DNA from: Candidatus Heimdallarchaeota archaeon B3_Heim
GTDB lineage: Archaea; Asgardarchaeota; Heimdallarchaeia; Hodarchaeales; Hodarchaeaceae
NCBI GenBank assembly: GCA_003144275.1
Contig: NJBF01000071.1
Location: 1-12,241, forward strand
Direction of reading: 5' to 3'
DNA: 12,241 nt
The notes beneath the pieces are model-generated. The model did not search any database. It was not told the origin of the DNA and worked only from the letters and a program-made list of their open reading frames with translations. Positions within the stretch are counted from its first letter, which is position 1; each line of letters opens with the position of its first letter. A program made the position numbers and the translations under genes. This document shows positions 3,487 through 12,241 of this stretch, one piece after another.

Positions 3487-3662
3487 TTGTGTTCCAGAAA
3501 AACAGGACTTCGAGCTTAAAATGTTTAACTATAACGATTGCGTTACTCTCAAAACAATCTTCGAAATTAAATATGTGAAATTGTTCTAAAAACCTAAGAA
3601 ATCTACTACTACAAACTAATTTCAAAAATGATAATAATGGGAGATATACATTGGGAATAAGT

Positions 3663-3811
3663 GACACCAGACAGAAGACCAGAAGTATTTCTACATTAAT
3701 CAACACACACTCATTATGACTCCTTAAGGCTATTACTTGGAAGTAAACGAGAGGACTGAACATTTCCATACTAATTCTTAAATAGTGGCCCGTGTGCGAT
3801 GAGTGGCAGCT
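3663..3811 (+). repeat. Modular intergenic element copy 3 (complete A-B-C-D)
   Basis: GACACCAGACAGAAGACCAGAA from 3663, CAACACACACTCATTATGACTCCTTAAGGC (3701-3730), box C at 3747-3772, GGCCCGTGTGCGATGAGTGGCAGCT ending 3811. Confidence 0.95.
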
Positions 3812-4003
3812 ATGAATCTATGGTTATGTTAAAGTGAAAAGTGGAGAGATTCGATCACCACTGGTATAAATATCGGAAAAAGAGAAGATATCTATTTCAG
3901 GTCAAATTTTGCCTTCTTAACATTAGATAAAAATTAAATGGTTCTCAAACTTCACAAAGAGAGTGAACAATACTTCATTAAGAAGAAATTTTGAATTCAT
4001 CAA

Positions 4004-4011
4004 TTATATAT
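4004..4011 (+). promoter_or_regulatory. Putative archaeal TATA box for 4044..4571
   Basis: TTATATAT about 33 nt upstream of the TTG start. GAGGGAA lies just before the start. Confidence 0.5.
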
Positions 4012-4043
4012 AATCTACTAATCCGCAACTTACGAGGGAACAA

Positions 4044-4571
4044 TTGACCGATATTAATCAAACGAATAAGTATATAATTAGAGTCTCTCTATTATGCCAT
4101 CCTGAGGACCTACTGTTCCCGTTAATCCGTGCATTGATTCAAAAATATAAAGGGCAAACTACAAATCAAACATTTGAAGACTTAACTCTCACTGCTTCGA
4201 CAATAAAGATCCGCATTGCTAATAGAATTGTAAAAGTGATTTTAGTCCAACCTATTGGTCGTGGATTCTTTAAAAAAAGGTTCGGTCACCACTTTCGTTC
4301 TAGTGGAGCCATTATTGCATTTTCAAAAGATAACAATGATTCGTTTGAAGCATCAAGGGCCTATTACCAGCGTTTCAAGGATATCAATACTGCTGATGTT
4401 CCAATTGCATTTGTTGGGATTCAAGAGTCACCTGATGACCTTGTTACTAATGAAGCAATCCAGCTGGAGGTGGGTACATCTGAATTCTATTATTTCATTC
4501 AGCATAATGATTTCGAAGTATTAGGGAAAATCCTCCTCTCCTTAGGAACAAAAATCTTCACACCAGCTTAG
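4044..4571 (+). CDS. Ras/Rab-fold protein with degenerate nucleotide-binding motifs (putative pseudo-GTPase)
   Basis: Rab-like spacing and segments (TIKIRIANRIVKVILV, HFRSSGAIIAFSKDNNDSFE, VPIAFVG). No GxxxxGK[ST], DxxG or NKxD motif. Confidence 0.7.
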   Translation: MTDINQTNKYIIRVSLLCHPEDLLFPLIRALIQKYKGQTTNQTFEDLTLTASTIKIRIANRIVKVILVQPIGRGFFKKRFGHHFRSSGAIIAFSKDNNDSFEASRAYYQRFKDINTADVPIAFVGIQESPDDLVTNEAIQLEVGTSEFYYFIQHNDFEVLGKILLSLGTKIFTPA

Positions 4572-4646
4572 CAGTTGTTATTCACAGCTACATATGAGTA
4601 TGGAAATAGAGAATTAGTAAGAATTGAGAAAAATAAAAGTGAGAAA

Positions 4647-4757
4647 GACCATCAGACATAAGATCAGAAAGACGCAACACACACCCTTTTAGACTCCTTA
4701 AGGCTTTTTTTCTAGAATACACGAGGGGACTGACACTTTCTACAATTCTTCCAAGAA
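4647..4757 (+). repeat. Modular intergenic element copy 4 (A-B-C, D absent)
   Basis: GACCATCAGACATAAGATCAGAA from 4647, CAACACACACCCTTTTAGACTCCTTAAGGC, ACGAGGGGACTGACACTTTCTACAAT (4721-4746), then hairpin TTCTT-CC-AAGAA (4746-4757). Confidence 0.93.
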
Positions 4758-4766
4758 ATGGAAATT

Positions 4767-5327
4767 TTATATCTGATCAAGATAGATATTTCCTAGACGA
4801 TCAAGAACTTCTGAAACATTAATTCCTGTCTTTGCTGAAACGGGGAAATACTGAACAGAAAAACCAAATTCTAAGGTTCTCTTACTTAAGGTGTCACAAA
4901 ATTCAAGAGCTTGAGAGTCACTTACGAAATTAGGGGAATCTGCAGAGCCAACTGAAACACGAAGGTCAATTTTGTTACCAACAAGAATGATCGGTATAAC
5001 ACCCTTCCCATTGTGTTTAAAAATTGCCTCAATCCAAAATTCACAAGCTGCAAAAGATTCAGGATCAGTAACATCAAACATGACTATTGCACCCAGAGCA
5101 CCATAATAAAAAACCGAACGAATAGTACCTTCTTTTGCTAAGGGAACTAAATCCCAGAGCTGAAATTTGATACTTAGATTACGGATCATCCTATATGTTA
5201 AACAAAAATCAGCACCTATAGTCGCTGCATAGTGTGGAGAAAAACTCTTAGGACAAAAATATTGTAAATAGGAAGTTTTTCCAACTCCAGGATTACCAAC
5301 TAAGACGATTTTCATGAGATAAGACAT
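4767..5327 (-). CDS. Rab-like small GTPase
   Basis: G1 GNPGVGKT, G2 ATIGADF, atypical G3 WDLVP (DxxG glycine lost), G4 NKID, G5 SAK. Confidence 0.92.
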   Translation of the reverse strand: MSYLMKIVLVGNPGVGKTSYLQYFCPKSFSPHYAATIGADFCLTYRMIRNLSIKFQLWDLVPLAKEGTIRSVFYYGALGAIVMFDVTDPESFAACEFWIEAIFKHNGKGVIPIILVGNKIDLRVSVGSADSPNFVSDSQALEFCDTLSKRTLEFGFSVQYFPVSAKTGINVSEVLDRLGNIYLDQI

Positions 5328-5356
5328 AGAAATGCCCCATGGAGGAAGATCGATGA

Positions 5357-5364
5357 ATATAAAA
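5357..5364 (-). promoter_or_regulatory. Putative archaeal TATA box for 4767..5327
   Basis: Minus strand TTTTATAT, 30 nt upstream of ATG. Confidence 0.5.
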
Positions 5365-5445
5365 CTTAAACTACTTCATATGAGTTTGGAAATGGAGAAA
5401 GTTTTGAAAAAGAAAAACAATGAAAATCTAATGAGATCCTAGAAG

Positions 5446-5594
5446 GACCACTAGACCTAAGATCAGAATTTTCTTTAAAAACAACACAGATACGCTATTA
5501 GACTCCTTAAGGCTTTTCTTTAAGAGAATACGAGAGGCCTGAGAATTTCCACACTAATTTTTACTTAGTAGCCATTGTGCGATTAGTGGCAGCT
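5446..5594 (+). repeat. Modular intergenic element copy 5 (complete A-B-C-D)
   Basis: GACCACTAGACCTAAGATCAGAA from 5446, CAACACAGATACGCTATTAGACTCCTTAAGGC, ACGAGAGGCCTGAGAATTTCCACACT (5530-5555), GTAGCCATTGTGCGATTAGTGGCAGCT ending 5594. Confidence 0.93.
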
Positions 5595-5655
5595 GGCAGA
5601 GCATGTCAGTAGGCAACAAGAAATGGAGGACTTAGTCAGTAACTAAGAAAAATCG

Positions 5656-6183
5656 TCATTCACCCTCACTTGGTGGAAAAAAAGTCCAATTCCTGGAGGT
5701 TATGACTTCTAAGAAAACAAAAAATCGGAAAATAATCGCATATTTAGACACAGATGCCAGTCTGAAAGAAAGAATAGTAGCGAGGGAAGGAGAAAAGAAA
5801 AAGGAATAGATAACAATAGCCAAAAAGGAAGCAAGAAAATTTAATAGCAACACGGAAAAAATAAAGGGAGGAATAAAATACCAGAGCAGCCCAGGAGGAA
5901 GAGACCAAGTAGAATAAGGGGTTTCAGTTATAATCGGAAAATTGAAGAAATTTAAATGAATATCAATCGTCCAGCAGAGATCAGGAATAGTGCTTGCAAA
6001 ATTTAAGGGAAAGGAAAAAGAACGGGTGAGATCAGAATTCAGAAGGGACAAGGAAGAAATCGTAAATACAACAAAAAGAATCAAAACGGGAAGACGATAA
6101 GACGGACGGGCAGGAAAAAGGGAAGCAGTATGGAGACTACCGAAATGCCAGATGAGGAGTGTAAAAAGGATGCATAGCAACAA
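5656..6183 (-). CDS. Hypothetical multi-pass membrane protein, paralog of 6433..6852
   Basis: 175 aa, TTG start, very hydrophobic. Shares IWHxG, SxLNxDLT, SFP and FFxFxIxTE in order with the neighbouring ORF. Confidence 0.65.
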   Translation of the reverse strand: MLLCILFTLLIWHFGSLHTASLFPARPSYRLPVLILFVVFTISSLSLLNSDLTRSFSFPLNFASTIPDLCWTIDIHLNFFNFPIITETPYSTWSLPPGLLWYFIPPFIFSVLLLNFLASFLAIVIYSFFFSPSLATILSFRLASVSKYAIIFRFFVFLEVITSRNWTFFPPSEGE

Positions 6184-6248
6184 GATCTAATTCTCATCCT
6201 AAAAAATGATAAACAACACTAGTCAATCCCTCATTGCGATGATCAAAA

Positions 6249-6377
6249 GACCAGCAGACATAAGACCAGAAGACTCACGAACACACACTCATTTGGACTC
6301 CTTAAGCTAACTAACGAGAGGACTGAAAATTTCCACATTGTTTAGTAAATATTAGACCGTGTGCGATGAGTGGTATT
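6249..6377 (+). repeat. Modular intergenic element copy 6 (complete A-B-C-D, B-C linker hairpin deleted)
   Basis: GACCAGCAGACATAAGACCAGAAGACTCACGAACACACACTCATTTGGACTCCTTAAGC from 6249, box C exact at 6314-6339, AGACCGTGTGCGATGAGTGGTAT ending near 6376. Confidence 0.95.
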
Positions 6378-6432
6378 GAATAGCAATTGCTAACATGTCA
6401 ACCGAAGCCTCCACGTGTACACTACTGCTCTA

Positions 6433-6852
6433 TCAACGGGAGGTTCTAAAGACAAAGGAGCAGAAACTAATGACTACAAATGTAAAAAAGAAATTAAGAA
6501 AGAGAACCAATAAAGTAATTGACGGAGAATAAAGAAGGAGAAGCTCAGGCCAACCAAGGATAGAGCGACCCAGAACCTCAGTAAAGATCGTAAAATCAAA
6601 AAACTCGAGACGGACATACCATAAAGGAAGGACGGGATCAATTTCACTAGTGATATGAAATGGAAAAGACAAAAAATGGGTGAGATCAAGGTTTAAGACA
6701 GACAACAGGGAGAGAACAAGGATTACCGAAAAAACCAGCAAGTGAAGGAGAAAACGAAAGCGAGAAAAAACTGACGCATACTTCGTCGTCCCAAGATGCC
6801 AGATAAGGACACCAAGAAGGATACTAAGAAGGAAATCGATTCCTCCAGCCAA
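6433..6852 (-). CDS. Hypothetical multi-pass membrane protein, paralog of 5656..6183
   Basis: 139 aa, ATG start, hydrophobic. Colinear similarity to 5656..6183. Confidence 0.7.
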   Translation of the reverse strand: MAGGIDFLLSILLGVLIWHLGTTKYASVFSRFRFLLHLLVFSVILVLSLLSVLNLDLTHFLSFPFHITSEIDPVLPLWYVRLEFFDFTIFTEVLGRSILGWPELLLLYSPSITLLVLFLNFFFTFVVISFCSFVFRTSR

Positions 6853-6892
6853 TCATAGTGAATGTCAACAGAATAGTTCCCTCAAGATAAAA

Positions 6893-7006
6893 GACCTTCA
6901 GACATAAGATCAGAAATATTTCTCATTAAATCAACACCCACTATAGTGACTGACTCCAGAGGGCATTTTCTTAAAAAAAAAAGATGGGATTACTAATATC
7001 CAAATT
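6893..7006 (+). repeat. Modular intergenic element copy 7 (A-B plus diverged C)
   Basis: GACCTTCAGACATAAGATCAGAA from 6893, CAACACCCACTATAGTGACTGACTCCAGAGGGC, AAGATGGGATTACTAATATCCAAATT (6981-7006) aligns without gaps to box C at 17 of 26 positions. Confidence 0.85.
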
Positions 7007-7063
7007 GCTCTGAAATATTAGTCTTTGTCGTAATCAATAATGAAAAATTGACTTCATCAATTT

Positions 7064-7609: not shown

Positions 7610-9430
7610 ATGAAAACGGCACAAACACAAAATTCAAGTTTAAAAAATAGAAAATGGCCAACTGAACATTTGGAGGAAGTTATTTCATCACTACCACAAA
7701 CAGTTCCACAAAAGATTATGAAGAATTTGTCACCTAACTGGCAGGATATTACCCAAACAGATTCTCAAGCAGTTGAGCTAGCTAGTGACAATCTTCCAGG
7801 AATCTATGCCCTCGGACAGGATTTACGAAGGGAAAAAAGAAGTAAAGCAAAAGGTGGGTTAGTATACAGGGTATTAACAAATGATAGAACTCTTGAGAAC
7901 AGCAATAAAGCAGTTATACAATATCTCATGATCTGGAGCAGACAACGAATAGCACTAACATTCGCAAACTATTTTCTTCCAATACTGATTCTAGTAGGAT
8001 TAACATTCTATATTAATACTGATATTCTATTCTATAAGGATCCATTTAGCCTTTTAGAACCAATTGATTCCACACGAATACTAGGAATCATCTATGGTAC
8101 CTTCACAGAAATGTGGTTAATCTTCTTATCATGTCTGTGGTTCATTCTGGTTGGCGTATGGAATGTTGTTAAGTGGATTAGAAATGGAGCAGCATCAATG
8201 AGAGTCCTTTTTGGAGTTTATGGGTCTTTATACTTAATTAGTGCATTCATTGAATATCGATTGCACCTCTCTCCATTATTTTCCTTTAATTTAGGAGAAA
8301 TATTAAATAATCCCAACTATACTGTTTTAGTAATTAAGATAACTTGGACTCCGATACTCGCAATAGCATTTTCAATTGGATTTTATATGCTAGTCAGAAA
8401 GCTTCCAAGTCTGAAAAAGATAATTGGAGGCCATAAAATGGATTATGCCCCGATATTTATCTATCTGAAGAGGTCAACACCTTCTGAGAAATGGCAGAAA
8501 GAGGTCTTATTTGATAAGTTCCATTATTGCGTGAAGGAGTTAATCGTACCAGAAGACGATTATAAGTTAGTAATGGAAGGAAGATGGCATTCTTTTGAGT
8601 TATATCGGAGAAAAAAATGGATTATTAACAGAATACTTTGGCTCGGGAGTCTTTGTGGCTTCATAATCTTACTCCTCGTTTCGATATATGGTATTCTAAA
8701 TGGAATTGACATATTGGAAATCTTGGAACCACTCCAACTAACAAATCAACTTGAATTATTTATACAAAGGTTGATTTATCCGTTATTACTTATTGGAACA
8801 GGGTATTGGTCGAGTACTAGGTATTCGACGAATCTTATTGGGAAAAAAACTAGAACAAAGAAACAATTGAAGAAGGAAAAATATTATCTATCTTCTGAAA
8901 AACTAAAGCAGCTCTGGAACTTGAAATCAAAAGAAGCACACTTTACTATAAAGGATAAACTGCAATACCCAGAAACATATCGAAATGAGAAGAATGGACT
9001 GACTTGGTTATCATTCTATGATGATGAAGTAGAGAAAGAGAAGGGAGCAAATATAATCTGCGAATTAGGCTTGATAACGAAATTCAAGATGAGATTCTAC
9101 AAAAGAGGAGTAGCCAATGATTTGGTGAAGAGTGGAAAAAAAATGATTAAGCAGAATAGACCAGAGGAAGCCCTATATAGATATGAAAAAGCTATAGAAT
9201 TAAAACCTGATTTAACACAGGCATGGATAAACAAAGCAGATCTTTTCAAGGATATTGACAGAGTTGAAGAAGCACAGGAGGCAATTGACTTTGCAATTCA
9301 AACTCAACCAAGGAATGCCCAAGCAATGTTTGTTCAAGGAGCAATTTTTGAGAAGAAAGAGGAGAAAGATAAGGCAAAAGAGGCTTTTGAAAAAGCAGAA
9401 AAGCTAGGTTATAGGAGATCAGAGGATTAG
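7610..9430 (+). CDS. Multi-pass membrane protein with C-terminal tetratricopeptide repeats
   Basis: 606 aa with about 6 hydrophobic helices. C-terminal TPR pattern: EEALYRYEKAIELKPDLTQAWINKA, AIQTQPRNAQAMFVQG, AKEAFEKA. Confidence 0.88.
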   Translation: MKTAQTQNSSLKNRKWPTEHLEEVISSLPQTVPQKIMKNLSPNWQDITQTDSQAVELASDNLPGIYALGQDLRREKRSKAKGGLVYRVLTNDRTLENSNKAVIQYLMIWSRQRIALTFANYFLPILILVGLTFYINTDILFYKDPFSLLEPIDSTRILGIIYGTFTEMWLIFLSCLWFILVGVWNVVKWIRNGAASMRVLFGVYGSLYLISAFIEYRLHLSPLFSFNLGEILNNPNYTVLVIKITWTPILAIAFSIGFYMLVRKLPSLKKIIGGHKMDYAPIFIYLKRSTPSEKWQKEVLFDKFHYCVKELIVPEDDYKLVMEGRWHSFELYRRKKWIINRILWLGSLCGFIILLLVSIYGILNGIDILEILEPLQLTNQLELFIQRLIYPLLLIGTGYWSSTRYSTNLIGKKTRTKKQLKKEKYYLSSEKLKQLWNLKSKEAHFTIKDKLQYPETYRNEKNGLTWLSFYDDEVEKEKGANIICELGLITKFKMRFYKRGVANDLVKSGKKMIKQNRPEEALYRYEKAIELKPDLTQAWINKADLFKDIDRVEEAQEAIDFAIQTQPRNAQAMFVQGAIFEKKEEKDKAKEAFEKAEKLGYRRSED

Positions 9431-9511: not shown

Positions 9512-9602
9512 AAAACAGGAATAATTGATCAACGATTCCTTCTCGGCTCATTTTTTCCTTCCTGTTTTGGTTTCTTTTTCCTATCAATCATCCTTTTTTT
9601 TT
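9512..9602. terminator. Possible terminator region between convergent genes
   Basis: Inverted repeat AAAACAGGAA (9512-9521) / TTCCTGTTTT (9559-9568) followed by pyrimidine- and T-rich tracts ending in a T run at 9594-9602. Confidence 0.35.
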
Positions 9603-9636
9603 ATTAAAACACGAGAGGACTGAAAATTTCCACATT
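9599..9636 (+). repeat. Modular intergenic element copy 8 (box C only, with the preceding T/A hairpin)
   Basis: ACGAGAGGACTGAAAATTTCCACATT (9611-9636) is identical to copies 1 and 6. It is preceded by TTTT-ATT-AAAA (9599-9609). Confidence 0.9.
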
Positions 9637-9954
9637 CTTAGGAAATCCATGAATAAACAAAACCATAAGTCTCACAGAATGGGATTATTTTGAGCAAAAA
9701 AAGGGTAATATTATTCGAGGGAGTACTAAAAACATCTAGACGTGAAAAAAAGTATGAACATGACTCGAGATAATAGAAGAAATGACAATTATGATTACAA
9801 GGGGTTATATCTGACAGATCTGGATTATCAAACGAATTCACATATGAAAGAAGAACATCACGAAGGAAAAGGAGAATGTTAAGCTCCTCTACTGGATTAC
9901 AGATATGTAACAGGATGTAAGTAAAAATATCAACAGCATCGATATTATAGAGAT

Positions 9955-11096: not shown

Positions 11097-11609
11097 ATGA
11101 TAGAAAACGATGACAAATACTTAATGAAAATATGTTGTATTGGAAGTGTATCTGACCTTAAAACGGAATTCATTCGTCGATTTGCGATGGATAAGTATGA
11201 TGTAAATTACTTACCAACATTAGGTGTCGACGTAACGACGAAGAAAATCGACATAGATAATGAACAGGTAAAACTCATTCTCGTAGATACAGCAGGGCAT
11301 GAAGTTTTTAGCAAAAAACGCCCTTCCTATTACAGGGGAGCATCTGCATTTATAATTTTCTTTGATAAAGGAGATCAGCAGTCTTTCAAGGCAATACTAC
11401 AGTGGAAAAAGGAATTTCATGAACATGTGCTTGACCCTACACCACATGCGATTGTTGGTTTTCAAGCTGAAACTGAAGAGGTTTCTACGGAAGAAGCAAA
11501 ACGATTAGTTGAGCAATTAAAGTCTACCTACTTTGAATGCAACCCAACACACGGACAGGAATTATTAAAAATTCTTCAATTCTTAGGAAGAAAGGTAATA
11601 GCAGGATAA
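11097..11609 (+). CDS. Rab-like small GTPase with degenerate G1/G4/G5
   Basis: G2 PTLGVD and G3 DTAGHE retained, plus Rab-like segments (KKIDIDNEQVKLILVD, YYRGASAFII). G1 reads GSVSDLKT and G4 reads VGFQ. Confidence 0.88.
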   Translation: MIENDDKYLMKICCIGSVSDLKTEFIRRFAMDKYDVNYLPTLGVDVTTKKIDIDNEQVKLILVDTAGHEVFSKKRPSYYRGASAFIIFFDKGDQQSFKAILQWKKEFHEHVLDPTPHAIVGFQAETEEVSTEEAKRLVEQLKSTYFECNPTHGQELLKILQFLGRKVIAG

Positions 11610-11631
11610 GGAAGCAATCACAAAGAAAAAA

Positions 11632-11697
11632 GACCACCAGACAGAAGACCAGAAGACAAACAACACACACTCATTTGGACTCCTGAAGGCTTTTTCC
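11632..11697 (+). repeat. Modular intergenic element copy 9 (A-B, possible box C remnant AGAGGA at 11718-11723)
   Basis: GACCACCAGACAGAAGACCAGAAGACAAACAACACACACTCATTTGGACTCCTGAAGGCTTTTTCC. Confidence 0.92.
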
Positions 11698-11758
11698 TAA
11701 CAAAATCAAGAAAACCTAGAGGAAAATATATTAGGAAGAAGGATCTTTCTAGGAAGCT

Positions 11759-12241
11759 ATGAATAATGAGGTTTTGAGAGCATTATCTGTAGTCTTAATC
11801 TTATCTTTTTTCGTTGGTTGTGGAGTATTTCCAACTCCAGTTGGAATGGGGAATAAATCTACTTTAAATTCAAGTCGATACAATGCTATTCCTGAAGATT
11901 TAGCAGAAAAGACTCAAGCAAATTACTATTTTCATAACGATTACACTGATTTCGTTATAGAATTGAAAACGCTAAATGAGTCCTATCCTGCTATAACCGA
12001 TGTTTATTCGTTAAACGCGAAGTACACTCATTCCAATACCGTAGGGGGAAAAGAAGTTTGGTGTATTAGAATCACAAATGAAAGCACTGGCTTACATAAA
12101 CCAGAAGTGCTTTTTATTGGGGGACATCATGGGAATGAGCGTGTGGGAGTAGAAAATGCCTTTTGGTATGCACAATGGTTGGTAACTAACTATGGGAAAG
12201 ATACCCGTGTAACTTCTCTTGTAGATAATCGGGAAATATAC
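11759..12241 (+). CDS. Secreted M14-family zinc carboxypeptidase (carboxypeptidase T-like), 5' part, runs off the window
   Basis: Not in the ORF track. ATG 11759 opens a frame to the window end: MNNEVLRALSVVLILSFFVGC (signal peptide, possible lipobox) ... GKEVWCIRIT ... KPEVLFIGGHHGNE (M14 HxxE zinc motif) ... LVDNREIY. Confidence 0.88.
   Translation, partial: MNNEVLRALSVVLILSFFVGCGVFPTPVGMGNKSTLNSSRYNAIPEDLAEKTQANYYFHNDYTDFVIELKTLNESYPAITDVYSLNAKYTHSNTVGGKEVWCIRITNESTGLHKPEVLFIGGHHGNERVGVENAFWYAQWLVTNYGKDTRVTSLVDNREIY

Follow-up and report, generated by a model that had tools for sequence, protein, structure and literature searches.

Orphan copies of the 23S rRNA 3′ end and its trailer as probable cassette junctions in an Asgard archaeal genus

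What is the repeat that occupies the intergenic gaps of this archaeal contig, one copy to a gap, and does it act as RNA or as DNA? The window analysed here is an entire contig (C79; 12,241 nt) from a metagenome-assembled archaeal genome of 3.9 Mb (G000), whose 16S and 23S sequences are matched by archaeal Rfam models. The first-pass annotation had read the repeat, which is ~150–200 nt long and includes all the motifs it named, as a compact pseudoknotted RNA of the + strand, with a self-cleaving ribozyme, a guide-RNA scaffold or a recombinase substrate as candidate roles. An nhmmer search placed nine copies in the window, each on the + strand; the genome as a whole has 23, confined to contigs C9, C50, C65 and C79 and oriented the same way within each. 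A 22-nt pattern describing its central segment, box C, matched the genome 19 times, against none for a reversed control, and the repeat occurs far above chance expectation. Box C itself is near-invariant, and the 9-nt spacing between its two arms (GAGAGGA at 3749–3755 and TCCATAC at 3765–3771 in copy 3) is kept in almost all of ~90 copies. ARAGORN found no tRNA in the window, and genetic code 25, tried as an alternative, gave no better gene map. The parts of copy 3 and the other sites of the window are as follows, primes marking boxes read in the rRNA sense.

3659–3685, − strand: box A of copy 3, kept in most copies; as A′ in the rRNA sense, the predicted distal trailer strand of a pre-23S processing helix
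3702–3730, − strand: box B of copy 3, including CACTCAT at 3708–3714; as B′ in the rRNA sense, predicted to pair with the leader
3733–3746, − strand: hp1, a short hairpin (TTACT / AGTAA in copy 3), variable in sequence with pairing retained
3747–3771, no strand assigned: box C, with imperfect inverted arms GAGAGGA / TCCAYAC and a 9-nt spacer whose central 3–4 nt vary; proposed crossover core
3770–3786, − strand: hp2, a second short hairpin (ACTA..TAGT in copy 3), variable in sequence with pairing retained
3787–3811, − strand: box D, corresponding on the opposite strand to the final ~22 nt of the 23S rRNA gene and aligning with the 3′ ends of LSU_rRNA_archaea matches
838–972, − strand: copy 1, box C at 907–928 (nhmmer E 2e-30)
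1848–1988, − strand: copy 2, left half and box C retained, box D gone (nhmmer)
4642–4780, − strand: copy 4, left half and a worn box C (4721–4742) retained, box D gone (nhmmer)
5441–5640, − strand: copy 5, whose box C is at 5530–5551 and which includes the 23S end over ~45 nt
6245–6460, − strand: copy 6, whose box C is at 6314–6335 and which includes the 23S end over ~110 nt; aligned to the 23S ends on C9 and C65 and, by blastn, to the native 23S gene of G012
6889–7038, − strand: copy 7, degenerate (nhmmer E 2e-26)
9595–9644, no strand assigned: solo box C (box at 9611–9632, 18 of 18 specified pattern bases) with hairpin-like flanks and without boxes A, B or D
11627–11765, − strand: copy 9, boxes A and B retained, box C gone

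Matches to the archaeal large-subunit rRNA model (RF02540, LSU_rRNA_archaea; 139–170 bits) abut repeat copies on the opposite strand at C65:12431–12734, C65:3498–3825 and C9:1–342, and box D and two more boxes lying 3′ of it, read on the reverse strand, make up the final 15–75 nt of these matches. Window copies 3, 5 and 6 align in the rRNA sense to the 23S ends on C9 and C65 over ~22, ~45 and ~110 nt, respectively. Since the copies align to the 23S ends up to box D, the part from hp2 through box A corresponds to what follows the gene. In a congener, homologous boxes C′, B′ and A′ come after the native 23S gene (G012:C44, model positions 1423–2973), and they also follow orphan tails in G002, G011, G014 and G018. 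These alignments identify the repeat as an orphan copy, read antisense, of the last ~22–110 nt of the 23S rRNA gene (box D onward) together with its 3′ trailer (boxes C, B and A). Tail-only 23S matches occurred in this genus only in a class-wide survey of 83 genomes from 18 genera, a limited test in which only two candidates per genome were scored.

A 5′ piece of 23S with its leader lies on another contig of the same genome, C88, behind the 16S gene. C88:1–1640 (− strand) carries 16S, a spacer of ~480 nt and then, at the edge of the contig, the 5′ part of 23S, which escaped the Rfam LSU search of the genome and was recognised by reading the sequence directly. In archaea, the leader–trailer helix of pre-rRNA is cut by the tRNA-splicing endonuclease at a bulge–helix–bulge motif, yielding circular pre-rRNAs. 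When the C88 leader was co-folded with the C9 trailer, A′ paired with leader positions 14–32, B′ with 121–157 and the 3′ half of C′ with 158–171, leaving hp1 as a side hairpin; the leader and an orphan trailer of G018 gave the same arrangement for A′, B′ and half of C′, and in other species a box homologous to A′ faces a complementary leader stretch. Because the boxes pair with the 23S leader in the rRNA sense, they are the trailer strand of the pre-23S processing helix, and their place in that helix accounts both for their conservation and for the resemblance of the + strand to a structured "leader". The repeats therefore resemble the archaeal processing helix in that A′, B′ and C′ pair, as its trailer strand, with the 23S leader of the same genome; they differ from it in being orphaned, with neither a leader nor a 23S body of their own. 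No bulge–helix–bulge motif was definable in the co-folds (C88/C9 and G018): a 3-nt leader bulge stands beside a GGAC:GUCC helix, and the matching 3-nt trailer bulge could not be placed.

The long orphan tails (C65 12431–12734 and 3498–3825, C9 1–342, L013 9958–10264) share a sharp 5′ limit ~300–325 nt before the 23S end, at Rfam position ~2721. As the C9 copy falls within this shared limit, it is probably an orphan too, and the true 23S 3′ end of G000 would then be absent from the assembly; a place of the array next to the 23S gene is accordingly presumed for G000. The long tails include the sarcin–ricin loop helix, and their common start looks like a second fixed boundary of a mobile unit. 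A full-length 23S gene considered as a native reference (G014:C57; L011 307–3242) was set aside, its end, leader and trailer having no relation to the 23S fragments and orphan tails found in that bin; a 35-nt segment occurs twice in the trailer, and the contig may be a contaminant. We also observed that the + strand of every box C (window 3747–3756) contains ACGAGAGGA(C), the core of the 23S sarcin–ricin loop, and that in the long orphan tails (L007 = C65, L005 = C9) the loop itself lies ~250 nt from box C on the other strand. Within one transcript, trailer C′ would thus be complementary to the sarcin–ricin loop over 9–10 nt, a match that may be due to chance, since other species of the genus show it less strongly.

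Conserved boxes alternate with variable, compensating stretches, as the first-pass annotation had correctly noted; the covarying stems are not those it named but two short hairpins, hp1 between boxes B and C and hp2 between boxes C and D. Both are AT-rich, 5–6 bp long and highly variable in sequence. Across 67 distinct versions of hp1, the mean unbroken Watson–Crick run is 4.6, against 2.7 after shuffling, and across 65 versions of hp2 it is 4.5 against 2.1. Taken jointly in a 20-copy alignment, the two hairpins are 80% paired with 19 double changes, and 0 of 500 shuffles reach either value; hp2 holds compensatory CG/UA pairs. The two hairpins covary, keeping their pairing while their sequence changes. 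RNAalifold recovered almost no structure from MAFFT alignments.

The box C pattern is carried by five of the 22 genomes of the genus, with 7–36 sites in each, co-oriented within every contig; 110 repeat copies were gathered. Successive box C sites are a median of 1.8 kb apart, and what lies between them is mutually unrelated: a methyltransferase, Ras-family GTPases, TPR proteins, peptidases, an Hcp-like protein and proteins without a Pfam match. The layout is that of an array of cassettes, in which 72 genes are read in the rRNA sense and 51 antisense (59:41), and no recombinase was found among the cassette genes. One cassette in the window illustrates how these units travel:

3803–4645, + strand: cassette body holding the gene 4044–4571 (weak Ras-like match), present in three other genomes beside other neighbours

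This body is 91–92% identical to sequences at G004:C33, G005:C196 and G006:C274; its flanks in G004 are unrelated, and the neighbouring genes of the window have no blastn match at the G004, G005 or G006 loci.

Where within the repeat do such exchanges occur? The ends of megablast blocks were too blurred by the self-similarity of the repeat, and a stricter scoring was used instead. Only one of 60 high-identity blocks shared between genomes then crosses box C (mean identity 95%), and this block is a two-cassette stretch retained in synteny. Blocks on the A side (upstream) stop at or before box C, and those on the D side (downstream) begin at least 40 nt past its start. In ~27 pairs of elements, the flank on one side of box C is near-identical and that on the other unrelated; a rare 26-nt hp1 is common to three elements with three different right halves, and an identical hp2 to three elements with three different left halves. 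The switch falls between ACGAGAGGACTG and TTTCCAC, and the 3–4 nt at its centre track neither side. For the 35 nt on each side of box C, the correlation of similarity across the box is r = 0.075; neighbouring windows within one side give 0.41 and 0.18. The flanks to the left and right of box C are inherited independently. Both halves are retained at 58 of 103 box C sites, the left half only at 25 and the right half only at 10, and the remaining 10, the intact box at window 9611–9632 among them, stand alone. Given that shared blocks stop at box C and that solo boxes survive, the most probable role of box C is to serve as crossover core for cassettes exchanged in an integron-like manner. The third role proposed in the first-pass annotation, that of a recombinase substrate, fits this evidence, the flanks being exchanged at box C.

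Two observations do not fit a purely site-specific exchange: elements are mosaic within each half too, and for most shared cassette bodies the ends coincide with the outer limits of the repeats, away from box C. Gene conversion among repeats, or recombination over short homologies, is therefore at work as well and may account for some of the pattern. For the exchange at box C itself, we infer a site-specific mechanism rather than one driven by short homology. The centre of box C differs between exchange partners, and a classical two-strand tyrosine recombinase would not tolerate differing crossover centres. Among public sequencing runs, none of RNA was listed as holding the window, and three DNA datasets share 5–8% of sampled words, as short contigs; the loose ends, at 3740 and 3768, bracket box C and carry little weight, the contigs being other copies of the repeat. 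No excised circle or empty site was seen. Box C sites at L017 6840–6853 and L026 ~9280–9294 (G004 and G006) are preceded by the same non-repeat sequence ...TCGGAAATCCTTTTAACG..., which looks like a shared junction with foreign DNA.

A search for tyrosine recombinases (PF00589) found none on the array contigs of the five carrier genomes, and no integrase adjoins any of the ~100 sites in the array loci retrieved (~250 kb). The only tyrosine recombinase common to all five carriers is one Xer-like gene, located away from the arrays. The genome of the window also holds a single IntI-like sequence, at C77:8755–9382 (TIGR02249, 186 bits over model positions 88–265, against 44 bits for XerC). Its N-terminus is missing, and ~480 residues of a large, unrelated protein run into it in frame. 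There is a frameshift close to its end, an IS21-like element comes next, and C77 carries no repeat copies. A classical integron was consequently rejected as a candidate, the match being a fragment within an unrelated gene of ~1000 aa whose homologues in G016, G017 and G005 are without the IntI part.

We consider it probable that the orphan 23S-end and trailer copies are junctions between mobile gene cassettes, gathered in an island behind the 23S gene and exchanging by recombination at box C. Cassettes would be excised and inserted by recombination at this box, with its arms GAGAGGA / TCCACAC set 9 nt apart and flanked by two short hairpins. The native trailer would take the part that attI plays in integrons and each cassette's own copy that of attC, and the recombinase would act in trans. 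What look here like free-standing "23S 3′ domains" or structured repeats would then be junction sites, neither split rRNA genes nor new ribozymes.

An unlikely alternative is that the copies are passive scars without present function. Plasmids or viruses bearing integrases would have integrated repeatedly at an att site formed by the 23S end and trailer and then lost those integrases, with later shuffling of RadA type or through short homologies. The sharp 5′ limit of the long orphan tails, which resembles a fixed attP identity block, speaks for such a history, as do the mosaic halves, the degeneracy of many copies and the lack of a recombinase nearby. Set against this, the modules are small (median 1.8 kb), and not one of the ~100 sites adjoins an integrase. 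Box C is near-invariant even where it stands alone and the remainder has decayed, and the break in linkage is far sharper there than at box B, which is of similar length. The hairpins of cassette-borne halves stay paired through ~65 sequence versions, which argues for selection on the orphan copies themselves.

We hold it somewhat more doubtful still that the copies serve as RNA in the rRNA sense. Transcribed by read-through from the rRNA promoter or within cassette mRNAs, trailer modules would act as processing, termination or stability signals, for instance through pairing with the leader or through cutting by the rRNA-maturation machinery. All boxes are complementary to the pre-23S leader, and 59% of cassette genes share the direction of the rRNA. 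Where hp1 or hp2 has a single non-Watson–Crick position (65–67 distinct hairpins), G–U occurs on the rRNA-sense strand 28 times and on the other 14 times, and there is a weak indication that the rRNA-sense strand is the one that folds. The remaining 41% of genes run in the opposite direction, however, the distance from repeat to start codon varies from 38 to 190 nt and no bulge–helix–bulge motif is definable; a function in RNA would also leave unexplained the independent inheritance, at the level of DNA, of the two sides of box C.

A compact pseudoknotted RNA of ~150 nt from the + strand, be it a self-cleaving ribozyme or an omega-RNA or bridge-RNA guide scaffold, is very improbable: it has no Rfam match, no covariation and no excess folding energy, and the + strand is the antisense of rRNA sequence. 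The motifs that suggested it do exist, CACTCAT at 3708–3714 being complementary to ATGAGTG at 3799–3805 and likewise 6286–6292 to 6366–6372, and the minimum-energy folds of both copy 3 and copy 6 include the resulting 7-bp stem between boxes B and D; no other copy has all 7 bp. On the + strand, the "CGCTA" class of box B could pair with TTAGTG in box D through G–T wobble. Over 44 distinct copies from five genomes, the B–D pairing averages 3.3 of 7 Watson–Crick pairs, against 3.1 for permuted partners (p 0.11). Across the 20 copies of the window's genome, pairing reaches 53% in the B–D helix and 70% in the box D helix, and the whole proposed structure lies within the range of shuffles; the proposed pairs show no covariation beyond shuffles or permuted partners. 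The box D hairpin fails as well, its outer pair forming in 29 of 51 copies and GCC standing opposite GGG 11 times. The G–C to G–T change that had been read as the outer pair of box C is a C/T alternation at 3771 that covaries with its partner in the neighbouring hairpin (CG 6, UA 6); the position thus belongs to that hairpin and has no role in a box C stem, and the rare changes in the box C arms are without compensation. The + strand of 3701–3811 has a folding-energy z-score of 0.04 and the − strand one of 0.91, ordinary values relative to shuffled sequence, and an Rfam search of the window returned zero matches at E ≤ 1. Guide-scaffold genes were sought with a TnpB-type zinc ribbon and DEDD_Tnp_IS110: 19 TnpB-like zinc-ribbon matches occur in the genome, none of them on C9, C65, C79 or the start of C50, and no DEDD_Tnp_IS110 match was found.

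If the repeats are cassette junctions, how do they relate to known systems? Asgard archaea have been reported to carry sedentary chromosomal integron arrays and attC clusters without an integrase (CALINs; Ghaly et al. 2022, PMC9668308). The arrays described here resemble these in their long runs of co-oriented sites with one to a few unrelated accessory genes between them, in their short conserved boxes and stems that vary in sequence with pairing retained, in the recurrence of the same cassette beside different neighbours in related genomes, and in the frequent lack of a nearby integrase gene. In integron arrays, co-oriented sites alternate with cassettes that are mostly promoterless and share one orientation; here, sites are co-oriented in every contig, and the genes between them are divided 72 to 51. 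An attC site combines an inverse core RYYYAAC with a core GTTRRRY, recombines at G|TT and folds as a whole into one imperfect hairpin, in which R and L boxes pair, with extrahelical bases. In contrast, neither RYYYAAC nor GTTRRRY appears at either end of the repeat consensus, whether drawn from 20 copies or from all. There is no site-wide imperfect palindrome, the conserved stems being two local hairpins of 5–6 bp, and the exchange point lies mid-site, in box C between these hairpins, rather than at the base of a single long hairpin. Unlike the sites of integrons and CALINs, it is a copy of an rRNA gene end and trailer, and no intI with attI stands beside the array, the sole IntI-like sequence being the C77 fragment.

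Genomic islands integrate in the 3′ ends of tRNA and tmRNA genes, tandem arrays included (Williams 2002, PMC100330). Here too the direct repeats are displaced 3′ parts of a gene for stable RNA, tandem accretion would result from successive insertions at a single such gene, and the fixed 5′ limit of the orphan tails resembles an att identity block. The differences lie in the target, which is the 23S rRNA end and trailer with a putative crossover behind the mature RNA, and in the units, which measure 0.2–8 kb, carry no integrase and number dozens per genome. With the dif and pdif modules of Xer recombination, the repeats share a short core of two inverted arms and a spacer, gene modules bounded by sites, and an Xer-like gene as the only recombinase common to the carriers; they depart from them in having 7-nt arms 9 nt apart rather than an 11-6-11 arrangement, a variable spacer centre and sites that are all co-oriented. 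The layout is thus like that of integrons or CALINs and of tRNA-gene islands, yet the defining features of both fail, namely attC cores, a site-wide hairpin and intI for the former, and for the latter an integrase at one end of each unit, beside the att repeat. A limited full-text literature search found no description of rRNA-anchored cassette arrays.

A broader proposal, which we advance only tentatively, is that this Asgard genus may possess a gene-capture system of its own, in which the 23S trailer serves as docking site, each cassette carries a mimic of the 23S end, and exchange takes place at a 25-nt box through an enzyme other than an integron integrase. As box C marks the end of the trailer stretch that pairs with the leader, the rRNA-maturation machinery might make the cut or be the source from which it was copied. 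If the cassette-junction reading holds, the lineage would own a second, integron-like route to gather and reshuffle accessory genes, Ras-family GTPases included, in a system anchored at the rRNA operon and built of rRNA-processing sequence.

Three further observations concern the genes of the arrays. Ras-family small GTPases are counted among the eukaryote-like features of these archaea, and their genes recur here at window 4767–5327 (−), 11097–11609 (+) and, as the weak match noted above, 4044–4571 (+), and at C9 3913–4428 (−), with Pfam Ras E-values of 1e-24 to 1e-30; as they sit in separate cassettes, they belong to the reshuffled accessory pool. An Hcp-like gene (Pfam T6SS_HCP, E 9e-28) lies inside the archaeal array on C9 (L005) at 4931–5545 (+). 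Finally, the + strand of window 5500–7000 shows a strong AT skew of 0.33–0.43 (A over T) across three small − strand genes without a Pfam match.
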